Shown: positions 1,052-59,974 of the stretch, one piece after another
How positions within the stretch are numbered: the stretch's first letter is position 1
How the letters are laid out: each line of letters starts with the position of its first letter
Virus record (IMG/VR): IMGVR_UViG_3300029712_000001
DNA from: a virus
DNA length: 64,000 nt
Reading direction: 5' to 3' (one strand)
Position numbers and translations under genes: made by a program
The notes under the pieces: model-generated
Seen by the model: only the letters and a program-made list of their open reading frames with translations
Database searches by the model: none
What the model was told of the DNA's origin: nothing

Positions 1052-1708
1052 TTATTTCATCACTTTCCTTACCAACTTAGAAACAGCTTGTGTGATAGTC
1101 CACTTGATGTTTGCATTAACGTTGATAGTCTGAGGAGTACCGTTTGCATCCAAGTTAATTACCTCCTTGTCTATTTCCAAGAACGGATCACCTGCTGTCT
1201 GGGTAATAACCGTATTAGCTGTCCGACCACCGGCGGCCGTCACCTTAAGAGTATTTACCAGATCATTTACATTAGCGTTTTTTGGAATACCGGAGAATAC
1301 GATACTGAAAGCAAATCCCCCTGTTGCACCAGGGTCGCCGGCAATAACAGCACCGTTATTGGTAGCCTTGCCTGCTGCCTGATAGGAGGCTGGTATTTCC
1401 AGCGTCAGAGGATGAGACTTGTCTGGAGTTAAGGAGAACGTTAATTTAGTTGAGTTACTTGTGCCGTTGATTGTTACAGTACCACCTTCTTTCCCTACAG
1501 ATGCAGTAGGATCTATTTTTACGAACTCAGCTACCGGAGCTTGGTTTATGGTAGCACTTTTCTTAACATCCCCGGATTCGGCACCAAATTCTACTTGTAA
1601 CGTACGCTGTACACGACCTTCGTATTTTTCACCTGATACGGTAACCGCCTGATCACCGTCACCTGATCCCGGATTGAAGGTTACAAAACCTATTTTCAAT
1701 TCTGCCAT
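1052..1708 (-). CDS. Ig-like / BACON-like tandem-domain surface or virion-decoration protein (218 aa)
   Basis: Repeated beta-rich segments such as GGTVTINGTSNSTKLTFSL and NGTPQTINVNANIKWTI. It is the lone minus-strand gene here, with its own promoter and terminator. Confidence 0.7.
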   Translation of the reverse strand: MAELKIGFVTFNPGSGDGDQAVTVSGEKYEGRVQRTLQVEFGAESGDVKKSATINQAPVAEFVKIDPTASVGKEGGTVTINGTSNSTKLTFSLTPDKSHPLTLEIPASYQAAGKATNNGAVIAGDPGATGGFAFSIVFSGIPKNANVNDLVNTLKVTAAGGRTANTVITQTAGDPFLEIDKEVINLDANGTPQTINVNANIKWTITQAVSKLVRKVMK

Positions 1709-1751: not shown

Positions 1752-1851
1752 GATTTATTATACGAAAATCATATTATTCATGTCTATAAATTAAAAGTTA
1801 TCTTTATCCCAAAATAAGACAATCATGAGAAGAAGATTTTTTAACAAAATA

Positions 1852-1868
1852 GGGGGGGGGGGGGGGGG
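1852..1868 (+). repeat. Homopolymeric G17 tract
   Basis: Counted directly: 9 G at 1852-1860 plus 8 G at 1861-1868. Confidence 0.95.
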
Positions 1869-1944
1869 TATTTACCTACTGATAATTTTATAGTTTTTGA
1901 TAAATCTGTATCAGATCCGGCTAATATAACAATAAGCGAAGACA

Positions 1945-2703
1945 GTGATTTTTTTAAATAGGTTGATTACAAGTGGCTTTTATAGAGTTCTTTGCAAGAG
2001 CGCTATGGGAGGAGGAGAGGTTTTTGTATGTAGATTAAAAGATAACGACAGTAATTTATATCTTGATGGCAGTCCGGCTGTTCTTACCGGACAAGAAGGT
2101 GATGTGATGGTCGTTTTCTTAGAATTTTGGTATAAATGGTATAAGGTGGATGATAATAAATTTCTTTATCATTTTGCTGATCATGATATTGACGGCACTT
2201 ACATCCATGTCCCGAAATCTCTTGTTGGAGCATATAAAGGATATGTATCTTTGAATAGATTATATAGCTGGAGTGATGTTACTCCTACGACTAACGTATC
2301 ATTATCTGATTTCAGAAGTTACGCAAAAGCACGTGGTACCGGATACCAGGTGATAGATTTCCAACAACATTGCGTGATTGCTATGATGTTGTATGCTAAA
2401 TACAAAACACGTAACCTGCAAGGCGTATTAGGACCCGGTGGCGCAACCTGTGATCCGGCTACAACAACGGGAAGCAGCAACGCAACCGGTGGTGCGGATA
2501 CCGAAAACGAAAGTTCAAAGTACGTTTGTGGCTTAGGACTTGAAGGCGTATTTGGTGGTATCTGTGAATTTGTTGAAGGTGTAGAAATAAATAACCGAGT
2601 TTGGAAAATAACCGATCCTGACGGTTCGATTCGCAACGTGAACGCCGGGACTGTCAGCGGTTGGATAAAAAAATATAGCAGCCGAAAATGGTCCGTTTTT
2701 TGA
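1945..2703 (+). CDS. Fibre-like protein, central fragment (252 codons)
   Basis: Long ORF with a Gly/Thr/Ser-rich stretch and GLGLEGVFGGICEFVEGVEINN, reminiscent of prophage tail-fibre C-terminal modules. The GTG start is doubtful. Confidence 0.6.
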   Translation: MIFLNRLITSGFYRVLCKSAMGGGEVFVCRLKDNDSNLYLDGSPAVLTGQEGDVMVVFLEFWYKWYKVDDNKFLYHFADHDIDGTYIHVPKSLVGAYKGYVSLNRLYSWSDVTPTTNVSLSDFRSYAKARGTGYQVIDFQQHCVIAMMLYAKYKTRNLQGVLGPGGATCDPATTTGSSNATGGADTENESSKYVCGLGLEGVFGGICEFVEGVEINNRVWKITDPDGSIRNVNAGTVSGWIKKYSSRKWSVF

Positions 2704-2704
2704 T

Positions 2705-2950
2705 GTGGTGCCTACAAGAGTTGGCGGTAACAATTTAAAATATTATTCAGATCGTTATTATCAGGCATCGGACAATTCCCTTGTTTTGGCTCGCTCCTAT
2801 TTTAATTCGAATGAGTATGGCGGCGTGGCGTATTCGGGTGCTGGTAAATATGCGTCGAGCCAGGATTTGACCTACGGTTCGCGTCTTGCTTTCCGTGGGA
2901 CCATATCCGAAGTAAGTCCGGAGCAGTTTAAAAAATTACCAGCATTATAA
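2705..2950 (+). CDS. Fibre-like protein, C-terminal fragment (81 codons)
   Basis: Continues the previous ORF in the +1 frame across the T6 run. Ends ...GSRLAFRGTISEV.... Confidence 0.5.
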   Translation: MVPTRVGGNNLKYYSDRYYQASDNSLVLARSYFNSNEYGGVAYSGAGKYASSQDLTYGSRLAFRGTISEVSPEQFKKLPAL

Positions 2951-2996
2951 TATCATATTTTAACTGTTTTTAAATAGTATTGTTGATATTATTATG

Positions 2997-6447: not shown

Positions 6448-7006
6448 CAAGGCACGGAGAGCGCCGTTAAGCTCTCCAAAGGTTTGTCGCGTACCTTAAC
6501 GCGCCTGTACGCCATTGTCAGTGGGTGCACGTCCCGCGTATGCTTTAGACTGAAGCTGACAAAAAGAGAGTTATTTTACATATTGGAGATAGATATACCG
6601 TTGCCCTTGCCGTTGGCAATTAAAGGGCTGGTATTACTGCATGAATCACCCGAATAGGCGTGATTCATGCTAGGTATGTGATTACAGTTTGGAAAACATG
6701 CCGTTGTACGAGGTTTATCTCCAGATCGAAACGTGTCTTACTTGCTTACACGAAAAAATAGAACAAGGCTGTAGATTAAATTACAGGGTACAAGCATGTA
6801 GCCTACCATGTAGGGACGTGCCGTATCAAAGCGCAAGGACACAATCGCCTTTATTTGTGGCTAAGTTGTGTAGCAGACGGAAAATATAATAACAACATAG
6901 TACGGGCCTGTACACAAGAACTACGTACTAATTACGGGCTGTTGGTTGTAGCATAAAATTCGTACAGGATAGGAATGCGCGTTCGGTTCGATTCCGGAGC
7001 AACCTC
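6448..7006 (+). ncRNA. Long hairpin-dense non-coding segment ending in a tRNA-like T-arm; class unknown
   Basis: No credible ORF. Stems 6456-6462/6471-6477, CATGAATCAC/GTGATTCATG near 6641-6670, and 6907-6913/6962-6968. GC is clearly above the flanks. Confidence 0.35.
6982..7006 (+). other. tRNA-like T-arm plus 3' acceptor strand (module 1)
   Basis: ttcGG-TTCGATT-CCgga, then gcaacct-c. Only a 5-6 bp partner (ggttg at 6944-6948) and 32 nt where a tRNA needs about 41. Confidence 0.5.
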
Positions 7007-8160: not shown

Positions 8161-8313
8161 ACAAAATTCAATAGATAAGCGTTTTAAAACAACATTATGT
8201 AGGGTTTTCCCACAAAATTAAGGATTACAGTGCTTTAAAACAGCAAAATGTGAGTTTATTCTACAAAATTCAATAGGTTGAGAGTTGAAAACTATATTCT
8301 ATAGATTGGTGGT
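8161..8313. repeat. Three imperfect tandem 51-nt repeats
   Basis: Units start with ACAAAATT at 8161, 8212 and 8263. Each has TT(T)AAAAC about 25 nt in. Confidence 0.8.
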
Positions 8314-9301: not shown

Positions 9302-9625
9302 ATGTTTACAAAAGAAGAGCGATTATTTATTTGGAAAGAAGCATATAGGGAAATCGAAGAATTACGTACTGGAGAATATATATGCGTTGCATTGAAACAT
9401 GCAGTATTTAAATTTTTTGTAACTCCTAAAAATTCCGGAACTTTTTATGGGATGCCTTTATATGAACTGGTGAGAACATATTTCCCGGAATTGGAGAAAA
9501 AGAAAAGTATGGCTACAGAACCAGAAGGAAAATGGGGTATGTATGGATGGTTTGGCTGTATTAGTCCAGAAACGAGGGAGGTGAGGCTAAATATCGTAAA
9601 AGACATTATAAAAGAATTAGAATAA
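9302..9625 (+). CDS. Hypothetical protein (107 aa)
   Basis: ATG ORF 8 nt after the previous stop, followed by a terminator. Confidence 0.75.
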   Translation: MFTKEERLFIWKEAYREIEELRTGEYICVALKHAVFKFFVTPKNSGTFYGMPLYELVRTYFPELEKKKSMATEPEGKWGMYGWFGCISPETREVRLNIVKDIIKELE

Positions 9626-9671: not shown

Positions 9672-9710
9672 GGCATGTCGGTTCGTGAGGATAGACATGC
9701 CTATTTCTGT
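9672..9710 (+). terminator. Intrinsic terminator
   Basis: GGCATGTC (9672-9679) pairs with GACATGCC (9694-9701), then tatttctgt. Confidence 0.6.
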
Positions 9711-9753
9711 ATCATAGAGGGATGACGCGGCGTGCCGGTGCGTATGTGCCGGT

Positions 9754-9778
9754 TCTGGTTCGATTCCAGGAATCTCAC
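9754..9778 (+). other. tRNA-like T-arm plus 3' acceptor strand (module 3)
   Basis: tctGG-TTCGATT-CCagg, then aatctca-c. The 3' tail ATCTCACA.AAC.AT is shared with module 2. Confidence 0.5.
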
Positions 9779-9798
9779 AAACAATAAATCATAATCAT

Positions 9799-10047
9799 AT
9801 GGAAGTAATAACATTCGGTCCGGATATGGATTTGTCTTCTAAAAAAGCAGGAGATGTATTTAGATTAAAATTGTATGGCATAGAGCATGATGTCAAAGTA
9901 GTTGGTGACGATGAAGATCCTCTTATGTTCTGCAAAGATTGTATATTTTTTAACAACTCCGAACGGTGTTCACTCTCAGAATCGCAAGACTGGTGCTTAA
10001 AAAAGCAAGTTGTTTACTGTAAAATAAGACATGATGGGGGAATTTAA
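9799..10047 (+). CDS. Small Cys-rich protein, family 1 paralog (82 aa)
   Basis: FGPDMDLSSKKAGDVF...CKDCIFF...C aligns with 8339..8608. Confidence 0.75.
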   Translation: MEVITFGPDMDLSSKKAGDVFRLKLYGIEHDVKVVGDDEDPLMFCKDCIFFNNSERCSLSESQDWCLKKQVVYCKIRHDGGI

Positions 10048-10222
10048 TGCGAAAGACGCCAATTTCTTATGGCGTCAAATTGGTAGGATTGATGGGGTGA
10101 TAGAAACTCTGAACCGTACCGAAGGAGAGATGCCGGAAATTATAGCTGGAGTGCTAAAAAGAATAAGAGATGATATAGATAAGTTTGTAGATAATAAAAC
10201 AAAAGATTATGAGAATATATAA
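10031..10222 (+). CDS. Hypothetical protein (63 aa)
   Basis: ORF in an overlapping co-directional chain. No motif recognised. Confidence 0.5.
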   Translation: MMGEFNAKDANFLWRQIGRIDGVIETLNRTEGEMPEIIAGVLKRIRDDIDKFVDNKTKDYENI

Positions 10223-10439
10223 AAATGATATTATAAAGGCGTCAGCAATAAGCACCGGCGCCGACAGAGGTGTGTTGCTGTGTTCAATAACAGATTCAGG
10301 ATTCACGTCTATAGCGGGCGTAATATCGGCTGTTAAAGATAAGTTACCAGGCAAAGATCATAAGAAGATGATTTTTGAAATACGGAATGATGGAAGAAAC
10401 GAATATGGCAGATATAATAATTGTGGAGGAAAAATATGA
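10209..10439 (+). CDS. Hypothetical protein (76 aa)
   Basis: ORF in an overlapping co-directional chain. No motif recognised. Confidence 0.5.
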   Translation: MRIYKNDIIKASAISTGADRGVLLCSITDSGFTSIAGVISAVKDKLPGKDHKKMIFEIRNDGRNEYGRYNNCGGKI

Positions 10440-19056: not shown

Positions 19057-19457
19057 TGAAAACACAAAAAGAATATGCCTATAAGATTGGTGAAATCGTT
19101 CTCAGGGATGTGGAAAGTTGCCAGAGTGACTGGTTCCTTATTGATCAGGAAATATTTATGCTTCCTGAAAACCGGAACAAGGCATTTATTTTGGGAACCC
19201 GGAAGACCGGATGTGATTTAATAATACTGGGTGGCACTAATTGTGATGAAGGTAGTATGGATTGGCTTTTCGGTTGCCTTGGCAATGAAAACTTCTATGT
19301 ATGCCAGCCAGTATCTTTCTATAAATCACAACAAGAAATCCAGAAAGTAAATCCGCTTTATGCTTTCAAGGTGGCCACTGCTTATTTTAGAGAACAAGGG
19401 AAGGTTCCGGTATTTGAAGATAGTAACTGTAGATTATTGACATACTCCCATAGCTAA
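19056..19457 (+). CDS. Hypothetical protein (133 aa) whose last 7-8 codons and stop come from the IS right end
   Basis: The IS boundary at 19434/19435 lies inside the ORF. The C-terminal residues LTYSHS and the stop codon are read from IS sequence. Confidence 0.65.
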   Translation: MKTQKEYAYKIGEIVLRDVESCQSDWFLIDQEIFMLPENRNKAFILGTRKTGCDLIILGGTNCDEGSMDWLFGCLGNENFYVCQPVSFYKSQQEIQKVNPLYAFKVATAYFREQGKVPVFEDSNCRLLTYSHS

Positions 19458-19605
19458 AGCAAATGGGATTCTTGGATACAAGCGCAAGAAACCCCGATGT
19501 TGCTATCGCTGGAATTACTCTTGCTCTCCAATTCGGAAATGCCCTTCCGAAGTATATTACGGGCTGCAAGAACATCACGGTCGTTAATTGCGCCGCACGC
19601 TGGGC
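19435..19605 (-). ncRNA. Putative omega-RNA scaffold of the complete copy; 5' limit approximate
   Basis: Stems 19485-19489/19519-19523 and 19495-19498/19505-19508 covary with copy 1. Confidence 0.45.
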
Positions 19606-20593
19606 ACACCCACGTGCGGTCGCGTAACGACAGTCCTTTATTAATGCAGCCGCATTCACAAGTTTTGGAAGAAGGATACCATTTGTCAATCTTGTGTATC
19701 GTTACTCCATATTTTGAAGCGACATACGTAAGTTTATCAATAAAAGAAGAATGACTAAGATCAGAAACCTTCTTTCCCCACAAACGTTTCATTCCTTCAA
19801 TGCTTAGATCTTCAATGAAAATATAATCATATTGTTTGCATAAATCATGAGCTAATTTCCATTGAAAATCTGATCGAAGATCGTTTATTTTACGATACGT
19901 TTGTTGTAGTTCAAACAGTCTCCTTCTTCTATTATTGGATCCTTTCTTTGCATTAGAAAGCCGTTTGTTTAGTTTTCTAATCCTGTTTTGATATTGTTTG
20001 AAGAATAATGGAGACCCAATTTTGCTACCATCACTTTTAGTTAGATAAGTTTTCAGTCCAAAATCCAATCCGATAGATGCACCATCATGTGTCTTTCTAT
20101 AAGAGTTTGAATGATTATGATCTGTAACTACAATCAAACTAAAACGGGAACAGGTTTCTCTAACTATTCTAATTTGTTTAACATTACCTTCGTAGCCTCT
20201 ACTGTATGAGAATCTAAATCGTTTGTTTCCTTTGTTAATTGTTAGACAATTCCCATTTAGGGTAAACCCACCTTGTTTGAAAACAAAAGAGTTGAATTTC
20301 TCCGGTGATTTAAACTTAGGAGGTCGTTTAGCTAACTTCTTAAAGAAACGATTATAAGATTCATCAAGACGTTCAAGTATTTCTTGTGTTGTTTGAGAAT
20401 GAAGTAGATTTCTTTTAATTCTTTTGGCAAAATACTTCTTCATTTTACCAATTGATATATATTTCCCAAATAGTTTGTAGTATCTACGTTGTAGAGCTAA
20501 CGCATGATTCCATACAAAACAACATTCACGAAGCATCTTTTCCAGATACTTCGTTTTCCTGGAATGGTATATGTTGTATTTGTATGAAATCAT
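19454..20593 (-). CDS. tnpB: TnpB RNA-guided nuclease (379 aa)
   Basis: Full-length OrfB-type ORF with an IEDL RuvC-type motif, zinc finger CECGC...CPACG, and DRDVLAARNIL. Confidence 0.92.
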   Translation of the reverse strand: MISYKYNIYHSRKTKYLEKMLRECCFVWNHALALQRRYYKLFGKYISIGKMKKYFAKRIKRNLLHSQTTQEILERLDESYNRFFKKLAKRPPKFKSPEKFNSFVFKQGGFTLNGNCLTINKGNKRFRFSYSRGYEGNVKQIRIVRETCSRFSLIVVTDHNHSNSYRKTHDGASIGLDFGLKTYLTKSDGSKIGSPLFFKQYQNRIRKLNKRLSNAKKGSNNRRRRLFELQQTYRKINDLRSDFQWKLAHDLCKQYDYIFIEDLSIEGMKRLWGKKVSDLSHSSFIDKLTYVASKYGVTIHKIDKWYPSSKTCECGCINKGLSLRDRTWVCPACGAINDRDVLAARNILRKGISELESKSNSSDSNIGVSCACIQESHLL

Positions 20594-29059: not shown

Positions 29060-29083
29060 AGATATTAATTTAACAAAAGAAAA

Positions 29084-29410
29084 ATGGAAATAGATGATAT
29101 TGAAAAAGCAGCAAAGCATTATCAAGAAAAAGATCATGATATCTGGACAGATAAAGGCATGGCAACAGAATTACAAAAAGCCTTCAAAGCTGGTGCAAGC
29201 TGGCGCATAGGCAGCGTGTGGCACGATGCAAGAGAAAAGCCAGACAAAGGGAAGTTGCTCATCGCGGAGGATATTGACAGTGCTTATGATTTGGTCTATT
29301 CAACCAAGAGCAAGCCATGGGAAGAACTTTCGGAAGAGAATCATTATATGCGCTGGGCATGCATCGAAGACTTGCTCCCATGCAAAGAAGAAGGGGGGGG
29401 GGATGAATAA
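29084..29410 (+). CDS. Hypothetical protein (108 aa) ending in the G10 tract
   Basis: Ends ...PCKEEGGGDE, with the three Gly codons read from G10. Confidence 0.65.
   Translation: MEIDDIEKAAKHYQEKDHDIWTDKGMATELQKAFKAGASWRIGSVWHDAREKPDKGKLLIAEDIDSAYDLVYSTKSKPWEELSEENHYMRWACIEDLLPCKEEGGGDE
29393..29402 (+). repeat. Homopolymeric G10 tract at a gene junction
   Basis: Counted directly: 8 G at 29393-29400 plus 2 G at 29401-29402. ATG of the next gene is at 29403. Confidence 0.95.
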
Positions 29411-29660
29411 AAGATTAAGAAATGCCATAAAGAAAGCAGAAAACAAACAAAATGAAGCAGACATTGCACTGCAATCCATTTGTAAATATCTTGCTTTCTC
29501 AGGATTTAAAGATGATAATGAGCCTATTTTAAGCATGGCTTCAGGAAATGAAATCATACTTGAATGGAACTGTTCAGAAATGGATGCGAATGAGATTATA
29601 GACTGTATGGAATCAGCAGGATATATAACTCCCGATGATTTTATTGGAGTGTTAGATTAA
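29403..29660 (+). CDS. Hypothetical protein (85 aa)
   Basis: ATG immediately follows G10. A G9 tract would fuse it in frame to 29084..29410. Confidence 0.6.
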   Translation: MNKRLRNAIKKAENKQNEADIALQSICKYLAFSGFKDDNEPILSMASGNEIILEWNCSEMDANEIIDCMESAGYITPDDFIGVLD

Positions 29661-29671
29661 AGTATAAAATT

Positions 29672-29749
29672 ATGAAGAGAGAAAATATTGAAAAAGCTGC
29701 AAAGATTTATCAAGAAAAAGACATGATATCTGGGCAGGTAAAGGCTTAA
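29672..29749 (+). pseudogene. Degenerate duplicate of the 5' end of 29084..29410
   Basis: MKRENIEKAAKIYQEKD matches IEKAAKHYQEKD. A 1-nt deletion relative to copy 1 (aaagacatgat versus aaagatcatgat) causes an early stop. Confidence 0.6.
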
Positions 29750-29768
29750 GAAGAAAATTTGAAAGGTT

Positions 29769-41734: not shown

Positions 41735-41819
41735 AACCAGAAGAACTGACCAAGCATTATGATCAGTGTTATAACCCCAAATAGTATTAAACCAATATAA
41801 TTCTATTATAAAAGTTTAA

Positions 41820-42085
41820 TACATCTCTTTAAGAGATCGGGTTATTAGCCTAAGCCTTGAAACAAAGGCTACGTTATTTAAGAATAGATAGTTACCTACG
41901 GATGTTTACCCAAGTCTGTAGCTCTAAGGTAAGTGATTAAACAGTTCTGGTATTCAGGAACAGTGTTGCTTATTCAAAACCTTAAATAACATTGGCGATG
42001 GGTACTTACAGGAGAAATCCTGACTTATCCCTAACGGGATTTACATCTACCAAGGAGACCGAAAGGTCTCCGAGGGGATGTATTA
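41820..42085 (+). ncRNA. Structured RNA candidate with several GNRA-capped helices; class unknown
   Basis: Hairpins at 41823-41837, 41853-41870 (loop GAAACA), 41896-41921, 42009-42022 (GAAA), 42027-42040 and 42054-42071 (7 bp + GAAA). The last is enclosed by 42042-42047/42077-42082. No ORF present. Confidence 0.45.
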
Positions 42086-42128
42086 AAACATACGAATAGC
42101 TTTAAATATATTTAATAGAATATGGGAT

Positions 42129-51908: not shown

Positions 51909-51955
51909 ACAACAATCCCCAACCATACAATAGGCGTACGGTTGGGGATTGTTGT
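51909..51955. terminator. Bidirectional terminator at the convergence point
   Basis: 16-bp perfect stem ACAACAATCCCCAACC (51909-51924) / GGTTGGGGATTGTTGT (51940-51955). Confidence 0.8.
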
Positions 51956-52635
51956 CATATCGTAAAATTAAGTGTTTTTTCTAATATCAGATATTCAGTA
52001 TGAACTTTACTTCCGCCATCATCTATCAAGTCCAAACTAATATAAGCTGTATATGATACATGATGATCACCAGGAGCAAGACGTTTCATTTCTGATAAGA
52101 ACATAGAATTTAAACCTTGGCCAGACCATGATTCTGGATATGGCAAAGGTGTAAAGTCGGCGTCTGTACATCTTACAACCCAAGTAAGATTAGGATCTGC
52201 CCTAACTATTCTATCATGAGGTCCATCAATTACAAGATCTGGCATCTTATATTGGTAACTATCATAATTAAGGACAATAGGATCACCAAAGTTTACACTG
52301 TATATAGCAGCAGGTGGAGTAAAGCTTGTTATTAAAAGGGTTCTATTAATCCTATTGGTTGTTCTTAGCGTAAACTCATCAGGTGCTATCACACTTACTC
52401 CAAATCCATAATAAGGAGAGGTTGTTAAAGCAATAGCAAGAACCACCGAATCCTGTTCAAGCAATTCCTCTGTCGTATCAACCTGACTATCGATCTCTTG
52501 CCTATCTTCCATTGGAACACCGCCTTGGACACTTATGGAATCCAGCCGTTCTTTTTTAGACAGAAAGATAAATTGCCCGCCCTGTGGAATGGTGCCTACT
52601 TTCTTTCCTTCTACGATTACCCCCCCCCTATACAA
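51955..52635 (-). CDS. Fibre / receptor-binding-like protein C, long ORF (226 codons from TTG); natural ATG is out of frame at 52691
   Basis: Beta-rich ORF directly after gene B. The MRRRF-encoding ATG at 52691 reads ...CIGGG then stops, and joins this ORF only with G10 instead of G9. Confidence 0.7.
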   Translation of the reverse strand: MYRGGVIVEGKKVGTIPQGGQFIFLSKKERLDSISVQGGVPMEDRQEIDSQVDTTEELLEQDSVVLAIALTTSPYYGFGVSVIAPDEFTLRTTNRINRTLLITSFTPPAAIYSVNFGDPIVLNYDSYQYKMPDLVIDGPHDRIVRADPNLTWVVRCTDADFTPLPYPESWSGQGLNSMFLSEMKRLAPGDHHVSYTAYISLDLIDDGGSKVHTEYLILEKTLNFTI

Positions 52636-52691
52636 TTGCTAACTATCTTATACTCATATAGTTTAGCATTATTTTCAAATCTTCTTCTCAT
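52617..52691 (-). other. 24-codon MRRRF leader ORF ending just after the G9 tract
   Basis: atgagaagaagatttgaaaat...tgtata-G9-taa. The first 15 nt are identical to the leader at 1825. Confidence 0.8.
52620..52628 (-). repeat. Homopolymeric G9 tract (C9 on the plus strand)
   Basis: Counted directly: c52620 plus 8 c at 52621-52628. Confidence 0.95.
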
Positions 52692-52695
52692 AATT

Positions 52696-53313
52696 TCATA
52701 AAATTAATTCGGTAAAGGGGCGGACATAACGTGGATTACTCCTTGTACTTGTATCCAAATGATCCCCTTGGATGTTTATATCATAATACCACGAATAGGT
52801 AGATTGTGTAGATTGAGTGGATGTCCACATTTTATTACTCATTATCGTACCTCCTACCATTAAAAGGCATTCGTTTATTTCATTAGCATACAATGATATC
52901 AAAAAAAACTCTCCGGCGCCACCTACATATCCATTTTGACCATTTTTAAATAAATAGCTATTAGCTTTATTAAAAGCGTAATTTTCATTACTGGTATCAT
53001 ATTCAAGATACGCATTCTGATTTTCACGCCCCCAATAATCCTTTTTAACGGTCTCCATATAAGAACTATTTTGTGCAAATACATTGTCTACTCTTCCATC
53101 CTTACCCCAACGAAATGTGCCAATATATTCGGTGGCTATAACAAAACACACTTTATCTACAAGAGCTATTCCATTGTATAGATCATTGGAATATCCTTTA
53201 TTAGACCAATTTTCTTTTGTATATAATCCTCCATCTACATGTTGGATGTATATGCCTTTATTGATTATAAGCGAGGGATTTACCCCCATCCCTGTTTGAA
53301 ATCTTCGTCTCAT
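52696..53313 (-). CDS. Fibre / receptor-binding-like protein B with DUF1566-like C-terminus (205 aa from ATG 53313)
   Basis: Starts MRRRFQTGMGV. C-terminal MWTSTQS...SWYYDI..G......YVRPF. The listed N-terminal extension (to 53400) overlaps a terminator hairpin. Confidence 0.75.
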   Translation of the reverse strand: MRRRFQTGMGVNPSLIINKGIYIQHVDGGLYTKENWSNKGYSNDLYNGIALVDKVCFVIATEYIGTFRWGKDGRVDNVFAQNSSYMETVKKDYWGRENQNAYLEYDTSNENYAFNKANSYLFKNGQNGYVGGAGEFFLISLYANEINECLLMVGGTIMSNKMWTSTQSTQSTYSWYYDINIQGDHLDTSTRSNPRYVRPFTELIL

Positions 53314-53527: not shown

Positions 53528-56500
53528 CTATTTGTAACTAACATCATCGTCTCCTTCCGAATCAGGAGTGGCGCCGATGAAGAACATCATTGACTTGTTG
53601 TTCGTCTGCTGCCACCAATTATAGGCGCGCGCTACGTCTTCCGGCGTCTTGATATTATACCATTGTTTGATAAACGTCTGTTTGGCGAGTTGCCTAAATA
53701 ACTTAAACTCTCCTTTGTATGTACCGGACGTCACCTTATCAAGTGAGTAGTTCCTAAGATCGGTAAGATCCTTAAGTTTCCGTCCCATAACAAACGGGTC
53801 GTTAATGATATCTACCACATTAAGCTCCATAATAAACGGCATCTGTGAAGCTATTTCATTTATGGTTCTGAATCCGACGTAGGATCCGAATTGAGTAAGC
53901 CAACTTTCCTCGTTTTCATCATCATCACGCCATCCGGCAAGAAGCATAGATACGGCTTGCATGATAAGGAACGTGCCGGCATAGACACTGAGACGTTTTA
54001 TATTGGTTTTCTCTACCTCATTCATATTATCTTTATTTTCGTTCCAGGCATCTATGATGTTTTTCATACCAGACTCGGAAGCTAAGCTAAATGTTTTGGC
54101 TATCATATTCTTTAACGTAATTGACAGTCCTTCCTCTTCTTGCATTGTTTGGAAATTGAAGCCACGTCTTTTCCACAGGCGTTGAGCTGCCAGCACCAGC
54201 CAGCCTCGGTGGGCGGTCATGAACCTGGCTATCCAGTTGCGCGATGCGGCAGTTCGGTTTTCTTCATTCAAAGATCCGTTACATATCTGCGACAAGCTAC
54301 GGACTTGATTCCTGGTTATAGCCATCTGGGTTTCAACTTCCTCAACAGTAACACCCGATCCCGGCTTTACAACCACCTTTCCATCCACGACGTCTACCAT
54401 ACTCCATAAAGTGCGATCTTTTAATGCATCCCATTCTCTTTTTATGGTACTCTGTTCTTTATTGCGTTCTTTTTCCATCTTGAAATCTTGGAACGTATAG
54501 AACCGGCCTTTGTAATAACGAACATTGTCCATAGTAGCAATCATAACCTGCGGATCAAGAGGGTAGTTCAGGATTTCCATAAAAGCATACATAGGCGAAC
54601 GCATTAAGGTCCTGGCCACTCTATTATATCCGGCACCATACATACGATTTCGGATATTGAATATCCCCATTCTCTCACCTATGACATATAATTTGCTTTT
54701 CCTATCTATGTCTCCGGTTTCTGCTATACAAGATGGAGCAAGGCGTGAAAATTCAGCCGATGCGTATTTAAGGGAGTCTTTGCTTATATACTGTCCTACG
54801 GCAGATTCCATGATGAGGTTGATATGACCTGTCAGGGCGCCGGTAGCTGCCACAAACGGGGACAGCGCCAGGTTCATGACCGACATAAATCTTTCAACGG
54901 CCATCATTATCCTGGTAAGGTCTACTGTGTATCCACCGATGTTTACCGTCAGTTTTTTGGTGTTCATTCTAATGCCATAATAATGGTCATTGAAGAAGTC
55001 CCTGAACATCTGATATGCTTGGGTTGCTTCAGCTTTCTTCCCGCCTTCAAATTGCTTATTCAGTAACATCTGCTCCAGTCCTTGGGCAAGCTCTATAGAT
55101 TTCTGCTTTTCGTTGTATAATGATGATTGCATCATAAGCATCGAATAAGAGTAACCAAAATCATGAGATACGTCATCTTGGTTCTCTAATTCATATATGT
55201 AGTATTTAGGTATGGACCGAACCCTATCTTCCGGATCATATACCTCACCCTGGCGTGTTTTACCATACAGGGAGTCATCTACGCGGTCAAGACATAAGTC
55301 GGATACGAAGTTCCTGACCGTACTTTTAAGGCTGATACCTAACCCTTCTATACGTTCTATATCTTGTTTGGATATCTGTGGAATAGCATACAGGTTCGGG
55401 CTCTGCTCTTTGTATAGATCAAGGGATTGTCTTTTTATTTCCTTGAGTTTTTGAATCATATTCCACTGCTCTACGTTTTTAGTAGCGACCTCATTACCAT
55501 CAGCATCATATTTGATACCAAAGTCATTGAGATACGATTCATCACGATACAGGCTTTTCTTAGGCATGCGATGACCATACCCATGATCTTTTACATAATC
55601 AGGATTACGACCGCTATTTTCGGCTTCAGATTCAGCCACCCATGCCCTTGCAGGGTCGAAAGACAGGTACGATATGTCCATGCCATAATCTTGGGTGGAT
55701 GTACCGTTTTGTACGTCCTTAACCATCTGCGCCACATCTATCTCACCTCGACCAATTTTGTCGATCATAGCCGCATATCCGGTAGGCGCCATGCGTTTAT
55801 AATACGAAAAGACCTGGCTCCTGGCAAATTCATTAACAATAGCATTAGCTTCTTCTATGCCCGCTTTTATGTCAGCTTCTATACCCTCTTCTCTTGTATT
55901 ATTTAAAAATAAGCTGGCCATCTTAGTATTAACAGCATTCCTGAAATCTCTACCGTCTAATTCTTTGCTTATACCGAGCTTTTCTGACAGGTAGTTGGTT
56001 TCAGATACGGTAAACAGATATCGGTTATCAGCAGCCTTAAACAGCTTATCCCTTAAAGCCTGAATCCTTTTTGCTTTCTTTGCCGTAGTATGACGTTGCA
56101 CAAACTTCCATTCCACTTCCTTGGAGTCAGCAAGAGCATTTAAATAAGACTGATTTACTTCGTTTTCAGCCTTACTGCTTTTAGTAAGGTACTTATCAAT
56201 ATCTTCAAGACCCACCATCTTAGCATAATCTATTAAGATAGCGTAATCAGCTTCAATAGCTTCAGATGCGGCCCTAAAAGCATCTCTTTCAGATGAGGTA
56301 AATGTCGCTTCGTTAATTTCTCCGATATCAGCCACATCTCGGTTGTTTCCGATTATTTCCTTGATAATGGCCTTATTTTTTTCTATATCTTTCACAATCG
56401 AATCCACGTCAGTCGCATCTCTATCACTTGTCGTAGAACTAATGATATCATGCGCCATTTTAAGATACGAAGCCTTGTTATTTGATTCGGTACGTGCCGA

Positions 56501-59500
56501 CTGTTCCGATTCTACATCATTCCAAAACCGATCATTAAATGACAGGTGACCTCCCAACATAAGCGTCTTCAGCGCAGCTTCTCCTCCAGACTCGCTCTGA
56601 ATCGTTCTTAATTTTTGCAAAAACGATTCTGATACGGCATTAGTGGCATTATTTGATTCTTTTCTCCAAACTTCATTTATGGCTTGTATTTCTTTGGCCA
56701 TCTTAAGTTGGTCGCCGGTTTTTTCCACTCTCCTGGTTCCTACATATATGTATTCTGAAGCTGCTTCCTTACGTTGTTTACGAAGCAGTCCTTCTTCTTC
56801 GTAATTGCTGCTTTTAAAATAGGCAACCTCATCAAAATTACCACCGCTATCAATAAAAGGCTGCCTCAATATCCGTTTTTGCCGGGATAGGGCATTAAGG
56901 TATTCTTTGGTTGTTTGAGAAACCGGATACCCTAATTCTTCTTCAGCCTTTTTGTATATGGATTCCATTCTTGTGGCATAACTTTCGCTAAATTCCAGTT
57001 CCGAATTTTCAGCATCCCACTTTTCCATCTGCTCTGTATAGATCTTTTCCTGCTCGATGGTAAAAATATCGGTATTAACCCTATCAGACGATGGTTTGAA
57101 TTTAGCGTTTTCAGTAACCGTATTTCCATCCTTGTCAACTACTTCTCTTTTAAATACGTAATTACGGTTATTGTCAACCACATCACCAATTTCTTGTTCT
57201 GATATCTCTATGTTCATGGCAGTCGCAAACGCTCGCATCTGCGCCAGCTTCTTATTACGATCGTATTTAGCCATATCAAGAGCACTACGAAGGTAATTAG
57301 AAGTTTTGCCGTCTACTTTCTGAAGCAGTTTTTCAAATTCAGATTTGTTAAAACCATGTTTTTTAGCATATGCCAGGAAGTCGGATATGGCGGGCTGGGC
57401 ATTCACCATCGCATTGTAATTGTCTTTGGCAATCATAGCTCCAAGAGCGTTATTGAACGGACTGGAAGAATGCTCTAATATACCAAACCACCTACTTATC
57501 CAAGAAACATCGTGTTGAACCTTGTCGAAAAATTCTTTTACTCTCTTTACCTTATCTGCCGGCACATGAAGTTCGTTCATTAACTTATCAAGCAACGTAC
57601 TTTCATCAAGGTCTTGTACTGATTTAATATCAGACTGAATACCATTGATGTCGGCAATGACGGTATTGATCCTATTTGTATAATCCTGCTTTTCACGTTC
57701 ATCAAATTCGGTACTTCTGTTACGGATATATCCTCGAAGATCGTTCATGATCGGAAGAACCTGATTGTTGATAATATCTACGTTCTTTCGATCATTGGTA
57801 TTGAAATGAAGCTTACCGTCTTTGGTATCACCATGAAGGATAGTATTTACTACGTTGCTTAAGTATCTAACCTGAGCTTCGGCTGTAGAGATCATGCTGT
57901 TCATGGCAGCCGCCATCTCATTCTTGTCTATTTCGGTCTCTACCTTATTTATCTTATCTTCTATAGTCTTAAGCTGAGCAAGGGTCATAGACGTAGTTAC
58001 AGCCCTATCAGAGCTTATCTGACGTAAGTCTCTTAATGTTTTCCTTAATGCCAGGATCTTAGACTCAAGAAACTTGTTCTTGTTCATAGAAGAAAGGGAG
58101 TATAATGTAAAGTCATTATCCTTTAACAGAGAGGTGTCAAATCCTTTATCTATGTCAGTAATGGCAAGATCACGAATGTTTTTAATAACGTTATTCAAAT
58201 CTTGTCTTTGGGTTGATAAAGCTGATTTAAGCCAGCTTACGATTCCAGAGAAAAGCTGCCGGACGCGCCCCAGGAAGGAGGTGGGCTCTACCGGCGCCTG
58301 TGCTGTGCCGGTCTGCATCTCCCTGGCGAGGATCTTTCCAAGAATTTCTCTCCTAACAGCATTATCAAGCTCAGCTCCTTCATATACCTTACCGTATGTA
58401 TTATAATACTGACCTGCATACTGGTTCCACTCTTCCGTACCTTCTACATCTTGCAGAACAGCCTCAACAGCATTCTGATCTCTGTATGCCTCTACAAGGA
58501 AGTGGGCTGTTTCTTCTACTAAATCAGATAAAGTAGCATCTTCACCAACTGCTATTACGTTATTAGCAATATCCGCCAATGCCTTAGCAGAAGGTTCATG
58601 CCCGTATTTGGTTTGGTACTTCTCTATATAGTCGGTCATACCTATGACACTAACGCCAAGAGTTTTCAGTATCTCGACAATAGAATTTCGTTGGTCACGT
58701 TCCTGCCTGCTATAATCTGATACGATCTTAGCTTTAGTATCAGCATAAAGATCGTTGTCCTCTAATATGAATGAAACTACAAGCGCATCAAAATGATCGT
58801 ACTTGGCGTCCAATTCATTGTATCTTCCAGACTTAAGATCGTTCTTTATCTGTTCCCTACTAACCCTTTCCGTTCCTCCGGTGGCGAGTCTCATAGTTAC
58901 CTTACTGTTATCCAACGAGCTTATGGTTATCATACCTTGGTCGTTCATGGAAACATCGGAACCAAAATGATTACGGAGCTCGGTGTATGATAAGGCTGAA
59001 TTGAAAAGTCTAATTTGTCCTGTATGACCTTCTCCTGTAAGATAATAGCTTCTTGTTTCAGGATCGAATATCTTAGATCCTGACAAAAGACCTTTCTTTA
59101 TAAGGTAGTTAATTATACCACCTTTTGTTGATAAAGAAGTAGAAGCAGAAGCGGTCATGACCGGTATAAAAGATTTGGGGTTGTTAAGAACATACTTTCC
59201 AGCTTTGTAAGTAATGTCTGCCACGCCATCCACGGCAGATTCTTGAACGGTGCCTGATAAGAACCCTATTCTAATATCATTCCCGCCAGAGCGAAGAGCT
59301 TCTCCGTAATCTTCAAATAATTGGCTACGATCGTTCATGAAAAACAAACGAGGCTCTCCGGTCTGATACGTTACACCCACAGGATTAGAATCTGTTTCTG
59401 GTAGCTCTTCTGGGCTAAATATCTTAAGACCGTCTTTTATAACCATATAATTAACACCCTTATCCTGTACCATAGATACGGGAGTGAAGTCTGAAGATAT

Positions 59501-59974
59501 GGTATCTTGTAGATACTGCCCGGCGTCTATTCCAGGTCCTTCCGGTACGGAAATACTTGACGGGACCATAGCATCCACCAACATAATATTATCACCCAGA
59601 TTTTGGCTGTAGAATCCAAAGCCCGATTCTTGGATTTCATAAGGTGCATCTGATTTTGACACAAGAACAGGGTTACTCATCTTAGAAGCCTTATCCAGCA
59701 CCCTTTCCCTATAGGCTTCCGGAATAAGATCGATGTTGGATTTCACCTTATTGTAGGCCTGTTTATTAACAGGTACATTCCTTCTCCAGTCGCCAAAAGC
59801 CTTTAAGAACTTATTAGAAAATACGGTTTTAAAAACAGTAGTAGCCCGTTCCCTGTTCTCCATAAGAGGAATAGATGCTATTTTATCAAACAACATAGAC
59901 CTGTCCCCTGATCTGGTAGAGACAGAAACAACTTTCTTTTTATTATCTCTTTTAATAATACACGTTGATACCAT
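53528..59974 (-). CDS. Giant 2148-aa virion-associated protein (tape-measure / ejection / polyvalent-type; function unresolved)
   Basis: Uninterrupted 6447-nt ORF with its own promoter and flanking terminators. Mostly helical and charged. C-terminal hydrophobic segments (SPFVAATGALTGHINLIM, VYAGTFLIMQAVSMLLAGW). Upstream of the fibre-like genes. Confidence 0.9.
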   Translation of the reverse strand: MVSTCIIKRDNKKKVVSVSTRSGDRSMLFDKIASIPLMENRERATTVFKTVFSNKFLKAFGDWRRNVPVNKQAYNKVKSNIDLIPEAYRERVLDKASKMSNPVLVSKSDAPYEIQESGFGFYSQNLGDNIMLVDAMVPSSISVPEGPGIDAGQYLQDTISSDFTPVSMVQDKGVNYMVIKDGLKIFSPEELPETDSNPVGVTYQTGEPRLFFMNDRSQLFEDYGEALRSGGNDIRIGFLSGTVQESAVDGVADITYKAGKYVLNNPKSFIPVMTASASTSLSTKGGIINYLIKKGLLSGSKIFDPETRSYYLTGEGHTGQIRLFNSALSYTELRNHFGSDVSMNDQGMITISSLDNSKVTMRLATGGTERVSREQIKNDLKSGRYNELDAKYDHFDALVVSFILEDNDLYADTKAKIVSDYSRQERDQRNSIVEILKTLGVSVIGMTDYIEKYQTKYGHEPSAKALADIANNVIAVGEDATLSDLVEETAHFLVEAYRDQNAVEAVLQDVEGTEEWNQYAGQYYNTYGKVYEGAELDNAVRREILGKILAREMQTGTAQAPVEPTSFLGRVRQLFSGIVSWLKSALSTQRQDLNNVIKNIRDLAITDIDKGFDTSLLKDNDFTLYSLSSMNKNKFLESKILALRKTLRDLRQISSDRAVTTSMTLAQLKTIEDKINKVETEIDKNEMAAAMNSMISTAEAQVRYLSNVVNTILHGDTKDGKLHFNTNDRKNVDIINNQVLPIMNDLRGYIRNRSTEFDEREKQDYTNRINTVIADINGIQSDIKSVQDLDESTLLDKLMNELHVPADKVKRVKEFFDKVQHDVSWISRWFGILEHSSSPFNNALGAMIAKDNYNAMVNAQPAISDFLAYAKKHGFNKSEFEKLLQKVDGKTSNYLRSALDMAKYDRNKKLAQMRAFATAMNIEISEQEIGDVVDNNRNYVFKREVVDKDGNTVTENAKFKPSSDRVNTDIFTIEQEKIYTEQMEKWDAENSELEFSESYATRMESIYKKAEEELGYPVSQTTKEYLNALSRQKRILRQPFIDSGGNFDEVAYFKSSNYEEEGLLRKQRKEAASEYIYVGTRRVEKTGDQLKMAKEIQAINEVWRKESNNATNAVSESFLQKLRTIQSESGGEAALKTLMLGGHLSFNDRFWNDVESEQSARTESNNKASYLKMAHDIISSTTSDRDATDVDSIVKDIEKNKAIIKEIIGNNRDVADIGEINEATFTSSERDAFRAASEAIEADYAILIDYAKMVGLEDIDKYLTKSSKAENEVNQSYLNALADSKEVEWKFVQRHTTAKKAKRIQALRDKLFKAADNRYLFTVSETNYLSEKLGISKELDGRDFRNAVNTKMASLFLNNTREEGIEADIKAGIEEANAIVNEFARSQVFSYYKRMAPTGYAAMIDKIGRGEIDVAQMVKDVQNGTSTQDYGMDISYLSFDPARAWVAESEAENSGRNPDYVKDHGYGHRMPKKSLYRDESYLNDFGIKYDADGNEVATKNVEQWNMIQKLKEIKRQSLDLYKEQSPNLYAIPQISKQDIERIEGLGISLKSTVRNFVSDLCLDRVDDSLYGKTRQGEVYDPEDRVRSIPKYYIYELENQDDVSHDFGYSYSMLMMQSSLYNEKQKSIELAQGLEQMLLNKQFEGGKKAEATQAYQMFRDFFNDHYYGIRMNTKKLTVNIGGYTVDLTRIMMAVERFMSVMNLALSPFVAATGALTGHINLIMESAVGQYISKDSLKYASAEFSRLAPSCIAETGDIDRKSKLYVIGERMGIFNIRNRMYGAGYNRVARTLMRSPMYAFMEILNYPLDPQVMIATMDNVRYYKGRFYTFQDFKMEKERNKEQSTIKREWDALKDRTLWSMVDVVDGKVVVKPGSGVTVEEVETQMAITRNQVRSLSQICNGSLNEENRTAASRNWIARFMTAHRGWLVLAAQRLWKRRGFNFQTMQEEEGLSITLKNMIAKTFSLASESGMKNIIDAWNENKDNMNEVEKTNIKRLSVYAGTFLIMQAVSMLLAGWRDDDENEESWLTQFGSYVGFRTINEIASQMPFIMELNVVDIINDPFVMGRKLKDLTDLRNYSLDKVTSGTYKGEFKLFRQLAKQTFIKQWYNIKTPEDVARAYNWWQQTNNKSMMFFIGATPDSEGDDDVSYK

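Follow-up and report, generated by a model that had tools for sequence, protein, structure and literature searches.

Fletchervirus phages of Campylobacter carry hypermutable poly-G tracts in genes for receptor-binding proteins (Sorensen et al. 2021, Cell Rep 35:109214, cited through PMC11959909 and PMC12823448), and a 2025 review calls poly-G switching in these phages "an exceptional case." The original prediction made for the DNA analyzed here likewise held such tracts to be established in Campylobacter phages and, as far as its author knew, not in phages of the Bacteroidota type. Our literature search agreed: in the literature it covered, Fletchervirus was the only phage example. Queries combining crAss with homopolymer or phase variation gave nothing relevant, and the papers on crAssE-Sib and zeta-crAss make no mention of homopolymers or frameshifts. 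Judged by that literature, a poly-G switch candidate in the crAss-like group is so far new, Campylobacter Fletchervirus being the case previously known in phages. The locus described below lies in a Bacteroidota-associated crAss-like phage.

The window is the whole 64,000-nucleotide stretch of IMG/VR record IMGVR_UViG_3300029712_000001 that was analyzed. Its closest, and sole, GenBank relative by megablast is phage crAssE-Sib (OR575929, deposited under the name "csAssE-Sib"), a 151-kb epsilon crAss-like phage from the human gut placed in the proposed genus Epsilonunovirus, a group predicted to infect Bacteroides, Parabacteroides, and Porphyromonas (PMC11054128). The window aligns collinearly with OR575929 from ~100.6 to 151 kb and from 1 to 8.7 kb, at 87–98% identity over most of its length, and on this collinear nucleotide similarity we assign it to the epsilon crAss-like phages (Epsilonunovirus). 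Positions 1756–2988 (plus strand), which hold the entire gene A cassette with its tract, are missing from crAssE-Sib; since that phage does without it, gene A is dispensable. The cassette is flanked by a divergently transcribed 218-aa gene (1052–1708, minus strand) on one side and a conserved 136-aa gene on the other.

Several further features were recorded along the window. A TnpB/IS605 OrfB gene (PF07282, PF01385) occupies 19454–20593 on the minus strand, and a second copy is cut by the window start, because positions 1–496 are a 92% inverted copy of 19435–19930. A match to the HEARO RNA (Rfam RF02033, 112 bits), an RNA linked to HNH/IscB-type elements, lies at 41771–42009 on the plus strand; a 50-nt inverted repeat (41776–41825 / 42077–42126) stands around this region, part of which (41842–42011) recurs at other genome positions in relatives. 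Three direct repeats of ~42 nt, spaced 51 nt (ACAAAATTCAATAG…), are found at 8161–8304.

Gene A starts at ATG 1825–1827 (plus strand) and continues AGA AGA AGA TTT TTT AAC AAA ATA (MRRRFFNKI) before entering, at codon 10, 17 consecutive G at 1852–1868. This is the longest homopolymer of the window, the next G/C runs being G10 (29393–29402) and C9 (52620–52628), and because the window is ~22% G it is not expected by chance. The original prediction had placed G17 directly after an MRRRF start, with the ATG frame closing shortly behind it, and the sequence bears this out: at G17 the frame ends at TAG 1891–1893, the same stop that closes it at G8 and G11. Its further reading, that G18 or G15 would open YLPTDNFIVFDKSVSDPANITISEDSDFFK, also agrees with translation. 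The segment read only at these lengths (1869–1961, plus strand; YLPTDNF...SDFFK) adds just 30 codons, however, and stops at TAG 1959–1961, so that it does not lead toward the long ORF as had been supposed: that ORF (1945–2703) shares the frame of the ATG, not that of G18. An alternative start in the G8/G17 frame was discarded, since this frame is closed by TAA 1842 and offers no start codon ahead of the tract. Stop-codon reassignment was likewise set aside, since the intervening stops include TAA and the window has no tRNA genes.

Comparison with relatives changes how this tract is read. Related contigs were gathered by an exact-flank scan of IMG/VR (29 contigs) and from metagenome assemblies (15), giving 44; a looser-flank viral scan added one further contig (L162), held outside the run-length counts, and a scan of genome contigs for this site (site A) gave no match. 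A G-run stands at exactly the gene A position in 44/44 of these independent assemblies, in line with the original prediction that an internal poly-G is unlikely to be a two-color Illumina end artefact. Nor do the relatives start the gene elsewhere: the MRRRF start is kept, with ACG in place of the ATG in two of them (L017, L020). Run lengths were G6 in 1, G7 in 6, G8 in 21, G9 in 6, G10 in 9, and G11 in 1 contig, none exceeding G11, with the consensus of G8–G11 runs possibly off by one in low-coverage contigs. Seven relatives are in frame, 15 carry G7/G10, and 22 carry G8/G11; thus 37/44 are out of frame, including the modal G8, and the "ON" state is the minority.

Run length also differs between genomes that are otherwise almost the same. 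Among near-identical pairs at site A (≤3 mismatches over at least 800 nt; 0.8–1.5 kb compared), 19/29 have unequal runs, and one pair (L027 and L064) shows 0 mismatches in 1484 nt yet carries G7 and G8. Nearby homopolymers do not behave in this way: the T6 run corresponding to window 1949–1955 is constant in 44/44 relatives, and the A6 run corresponding to 2667–2673 in all 24 relatives aligned there. Since near-identical pairs differ in tract length while T6 and A6 stay constant, the run mutates far faster than its surroundings. It is almost never interrupted by another base.

Behind the run lies a real and selected gene. An unbroken 359-codon ORF begins right after it in 22/29 IMG/VR relatives (4 run off the contig and 3 are broken), and in relatives run length alone sets the frame of this ORF against the ATG, with G6 and G9 in frame. 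Across the 29 intact relatives, variable sites in codons 47–280 fall 50/47/107 on first, second, and third codon positions; this excess at third positions shows that purifying selection acts on the ORF in the relatives. The last 79 codons present a different pattern (34/40/43), with first and second positions as variable as third, which indicates diversification.

Protein collections add further support for the start and the reading frame. Full-length 371-aa in-frame proteins beginning MRRRFFNKIGGGYLPTDNF are common in a large protein collection; one of them (P0001; 98% identity) belongs to a cluster of 877 members. Homologues at 45–60% identity keep MRRRF, followed by a short variable linker and V/IFDKSxSDPANITI without a Gly run (e.g., MRRRFTNQTISGIPDESFMTFDKS and MRRRFHSRQSGGPYVSVIFDKS). 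Because MRRRF is thus conserved from 98% down to 45% identity, ATG 1825 is the genuine start, and because the distant homologues have no Gly run, the poly-G is a derived and maintained feature. By this alignment it is best described as a derived insertion in a linker tolerant of length change, in-frame alleles encoding GG, GGG, or GGGG. The same collection holds 352-aa entries that start after the tract, which are probably gene callers' annotations of out-of-frame alleles; in most assemblies these genes are split or truncated by gene callers (352-aa and 226-aa calls).

The copy in the window is another matter, for it carries two frameshifts besides the tract. A T7 at 1949–1955 is a window-unique +1 insertion relative to the T6 of the relatives, and an A7 at 2667–2673, a window-unique +1 relative to their A6, produces the third shift; the correct reading there is SGWIKNIAAENGPFFDVVPT. 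Owing to the A7, the main body of gene A (1945–2703, plus strand, in the ATG frame), which encodes the N-terminal beta domain and the first part of the lectin-fold domain, is closed by TGA 2701–2703, and the C-terminal hypervariable part of that domain (2705–2950, plus strand; 81 codons; …GGVAY…GSRLAFRG…) lies in a third frame. A third frameshift had also been considered at T6 2695–2700 and was dropped, the alignment with relatives placing the shift at the A7. Repair in the window therefore needs three events (G17 to G18 or G15, T7 to T6, and A7 to A6), and no change to G18 or G15 could bring the protein back, given the two further shifts at T7 and A7. The original description of the gene as one G short of an open frame accordingly fits the gene family and fails for the window copy: a length change alone toggles between full-length and truncated product in the relatives, not here. 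The most economical reading of these alignments is that the window allele is a decayed or locked-off pseudogene rather than a switchable one, unless T7 and A7 are assembly errors, and that its tract has drifted or expanded to G17, past the G6–G11 range of the relatives.

That proviso amounts to an explanation of its own, in which G17, T7, and A7 are homopolymer miscalls, the true run is shorter, and the gene is intact. Its appeal is that G17 is an outlier against relatives with no run above G11, and that all three lesions are +1 changes or expansions in homopolymers and unique to the window, which has further unique homopolymer indels at 6561, 6753, and 9525–9537. Those other indels, however, fall in a region without ORFs, and the remaining ~50 kb compared with crAssE-Sib is almost without frame breaks, which makes pervasive homopolymer error unlikely; the window is sometimes the more intact genome. 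A 2148-aa virion structural protein, for example, is one ORF in the window (53528–59974, minus strand) and two annotated CDS in crAssE-Sib (OR575929 103085–109487), so that the frame break lies in the GenBank record and not in the window. For the tract itself, whose presence in every relative is incompatible with a two-color poly-G end artefact, a sequencing origin is excluded; for its exact length and for the T7 and A7, miscalls in this assembly are still conceivable. Overall we consider it unlikely that sequencing or assembly error accounts for the lesions.

Two other stretches of the window show irregularities of their own. A conserved stretch at ~6450–7000, in which the A-run indels at 6561 and 6753 lie, contains no ORF conserved in relatives; it may be a structured RNA, and it matched no Rfam family at gathering score. 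At 9698–10219 the frame changes twice relative to a 176-aa crAssE-Sib ORF, with window-unique short indels just outside (9525–9537 and 10392–10400), and this may be another broken gene.

Gene A is not the only MRRRF gene with a tract. Three genes in the window start with MRRR(F/Y), at 1825 and, on the minus strand, at 52691 and 53313, and five do so in crAssE-Sib (L078 positions 13285, 14017, and 42029; L080 positions 9702 and 10324); several of them come directly after giant structural genes. Gene C (51955–52691, minus strand) combines an MRRRF start with a G9 tract at 52620–52628, 60 nt after ATG 52691 (MRRRFENNAKLYEYKIVSNCI), which is followed by an immediate TAA. G10 would fuse the MRRRFENNAKLYEYKIVSNCI start to a 221-codon ORF and yield a 245-aa protein, and such 245-aa in-frame products are abundant in the protein collection. 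At this position (site C), 24 relatives carry G8 (1), G9 (9), G10 (12, three interrupted by A), or G11 (2); the tract differs in 13/24 near-identical pairs, and no relative has a break in the ORF behind the run, which spans 220–222 codons where the contig is long enough. Gene B (52696–53313, minus strand), the third MRRRF-start gene, encodes 205 aa and has no long tract.

At the gene C locus, crAssE-Sib has another gene body behind the same MRRRFEN start, without a tract, and this swap immediately after MRRRFEN suggests exchangeable cassettes that have an N-terminal module in common. A third tract lies elsewhere in crAssE-Sib, where a G11 (L078 13256–13266, equal to OR575929 63256–63266) precedes by ~18 nt the ATG of an MRRRF gene whose product is rich in glycine. 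A strict-flank scan for this upstream tract found one contig; in relatives gathered by a protein-based locus search (L082–L158) it ranges from G7 to G11, and some lineages have no tract. The flanks of the three tracts are alike (ATA-Gn-TA(A/T)T), and no shared promoter is evident upstream of the three MRRRF genes. A further candidate, the G10 at 29393–29402, was rejected as a conserved tract, since eight relatives carry GAGGGAGGGGGTGATA or GAGGAGGGGAGGGTGATA instead. It sits at a two-gene junction (…CKEEGGGDE* / ATGAATAAA…) where G9 would fuse both genes. Near it, paralogous small genes lie 588 nt apart at 29068–29177 and 29656–29764, the second frameshifted by a 1-nt deletion.

Length variation of this kind need not be functional. 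A slippage-prone run in a dispensable, often inactive gene would vary as mutational noise accompanied by decay, and the site A lengths fit a mutational distribution centered on 8 as well as they fit a functional switch; selection for expression is hard to reconcile with a modal G8 that is out of frame. The 37 out-of-frame relatives, the copies broken in other ways (the window, L004, L024, L030, L067, and L075), the two lost ATG codons, the absence of gene A from crAssE-Sib, and the three lesions of the window allele all point in this direction. Point mutations should, though, break up a neutral run over time, whereas the run at site A is almost uninterrupted; the 359-codon ORF is intact in 22/29 IMG/VR relatives and broken in three, with its variation concentrated in third positions; two other MRRRF genes have similar tracts at their 5′ ends; and the distant homologues imply that the run arose later and has been maintained. 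Taken with these points, a purely neutral hot spot seems to us very improbable.

The same lengths could instead feed programmed recoding. If RNA polymerase stutter added one G, or the ribosome slipped −1 on G GGG GGN, then genomes one G short (G8 and G17 at site A, G9 at site C) would make some full-length protein, with the tract setting the ratio. The commonest out-of-frame lengths are indeed one G short at both sites (G8 in 21/44 relatives, plus the window's G17; G9 in 9/24, plus the window), and the ORF is under purifying selection though most genomes are out of frame. A recoding site would nevertheless be expected to hold to one slippery length, and here the run varies freely from G6 to G11, site A shows each of the three frame classes (7, 15, and 22 relatives), and in-frame alleles are common at both sites. 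No stable RNA structure follows the tract, the 92 nt downstream folding no better than shuffled sequences (z +0.70), and recoding could not rescue the window copy, in which the G18 frame stops after 30 codons. We therefore regard recoding as quite unlikely.

Of the readings considered, frame switching by changes in tract length is the one we hold probable: slipped-strand changes in the coding poly-G would turn an accessory binding protein on and off across the lineage, with the copy in the window dead. Slipped-strand mispairing during phage DNA replication would add or remove G residues. Multiples of three (G6, G9, G12, and so on) would place MRRRF in frame with the 359-codon body and yield the 371-aa protein, and at other lengths translation would end after ~20 residues. 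Since the run codes for 2–4 glycines of a disordered linker, in-frame changes would be tolerated. A DNA polymerase gene is reported to be missing from epsilon crAss-like phages (PMC11054128), which would leave the host replisome as the place where slippage happens. Both slippage as the cause and on/off control of protein level are proposals drawn from the comparison of genomes. On them, gene A across the lineage would be a simple-sequence contingency, or phase-variable, locus, and an equivalent tract would sit in gene C, which also begins with MRRRF (52691, minus strand). The original prediction of a contingency switch is thus partly supported: it fits the relatives, where the homopolymer lies within the ORF (as it does in the window), the run is hypervariable and changes faster than its flanks, and the gene is intact and selected; it does not fit the window copy, with its two additional frameshifts.

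Structure prediction gives the protein a more specific identity than the "fibre-like" label first attached to it. Modeled by AlphaFold2 with 30 homologues, P0001 reaches a mean pLDDT of 90.9, disorder (pLDDT < 50) being confined to residues 1–11. The best Foldseek match in the PDB is the Thermus diversity-generating retroelement (DGR) variable protein TaqVP (5VF4, E 2.7e-10); formylglycine-generating enzymes (FGE) and Treponema TvpA (2Y3C) come next. On this model the gene A product is a C-type-lectin/FGE-fold binding protein of the DGR-diversified kind and not a classical fibre. The gene A protein matches phrog_14959 (unknown function) and phrog_5302 (tail protein) in PHROGs, proteins B and C match nothing there, and none of the three matches Pfam. 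Fusions to fimbrillin-like (PF13149) or BACON (PF13004) domains occur in some of the homologues from Bacteroidales genomes. From its fold, we take the protein as a probable virion appendage that binds a ligand or receptor, and it may act in host range.

The kinship with DGR targets raises the question of how gene A is diversified. By tblastn, it matches Bacteroides hankyphage proteins at places that the annotation gives as variable or template repeats of DGRs. A template repeat for gene A (2601–2960) was found neither in the window, nor in ~10 kb flanks of the relatives, nor in the crAssE-Sib template repeat (TR), which matches neither gene A nor any other part of the window. Comparison with crAssE-Sib likewise showed nothing in the window that corresponds to the DGR region of that phage, and no reverse transcriptase was identified in the window by this comparison. 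Because none of these places holds a matching template repeat, DGR targeting of gene A is not established.

The several MRRRF loci invite a wider, tentative proposal. In it, a set of poly-G switches, at three loci or more, may control interchangeable MRRRF-start appendage genes of epsilon crAss-like phages, with two of the tracts within ORFs and one ~18 nt upstream of a start. Slippage on the host replisome would then give each phage stock a mixed repertoire of receptor-binding proteins, alongside DGR diversification. We regard this as possible rather than probable. If it is true, a stochastic switch on lectin-fold binding proteins would constitute a second host-range hedge besides DGRs, and poly-G switching in phages would reach past the single Campylobacter example. 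CrAss-like phages are the most abundant human gut viruses, and their hosts, which evade them by capsule phase variation, live alongside them for years; the proposed set would be a phage-side counterpart to that capsule phase variation of the Bacteroidales hosts.

Set beside known systems, the gene A locus shares elements with four of them. The sites of transcriptional slippage or −1 frameshifting in dnaX, IS elements, and the paramyxovirus P gene, where G insertion occurs, likewise involve a run that needs one extra base or a −1 slip; unlike those sites, the run here is unconserved in length, occurs in all frame classes, and has no downstream stimulatory structure. Bacterial contingency loci, with poly-G/C tracts in surface genes of Campylobacter, Neisseria, and Haemophilus, have in common with it a homopolymer near the 5′ end of the ORF, a surface or interaction protein as the product, expression that depends on the frame, and tract lengths that vary among near-identical genomes. 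The gene A locus differs in sitting in a virus. Bacteroidales hosts themselves phase-vary mainly by invertible promoters.

DGR variable proteins (TaqVP 5VF4, TvpA 2Y3C, and Mtd; also the crAssE-Sib receptor-binding protein with its VR, TR, and RT) have a fold like that predicted for the gene A protein, whose C-terminal patch is likewise hypervariable among relatives. In contrast to their retrohoming, gene A would diversify by 5′ frame switching. The nearest parallel is Fletchervirus. As the citing articles describe that system, both have poly-G inside the coding region of putative receptor-binding genes with length setting the reading frame, and both have several tracts per genome whose length is polymorphic between close phages. 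Measured against the same descriptions, switching here is a proposal drawn from genome comparison, and the setting is a different one: a ~150-kb phage of the epsilon group of Crassvirales, with hosts predicted in the phylum Bacteroidota, in which the target is a C-type-lectin/FGE-fold protein of the DGR variable type and the tract occupies a disordered linker right behind a shared MRRRF N-terminus.
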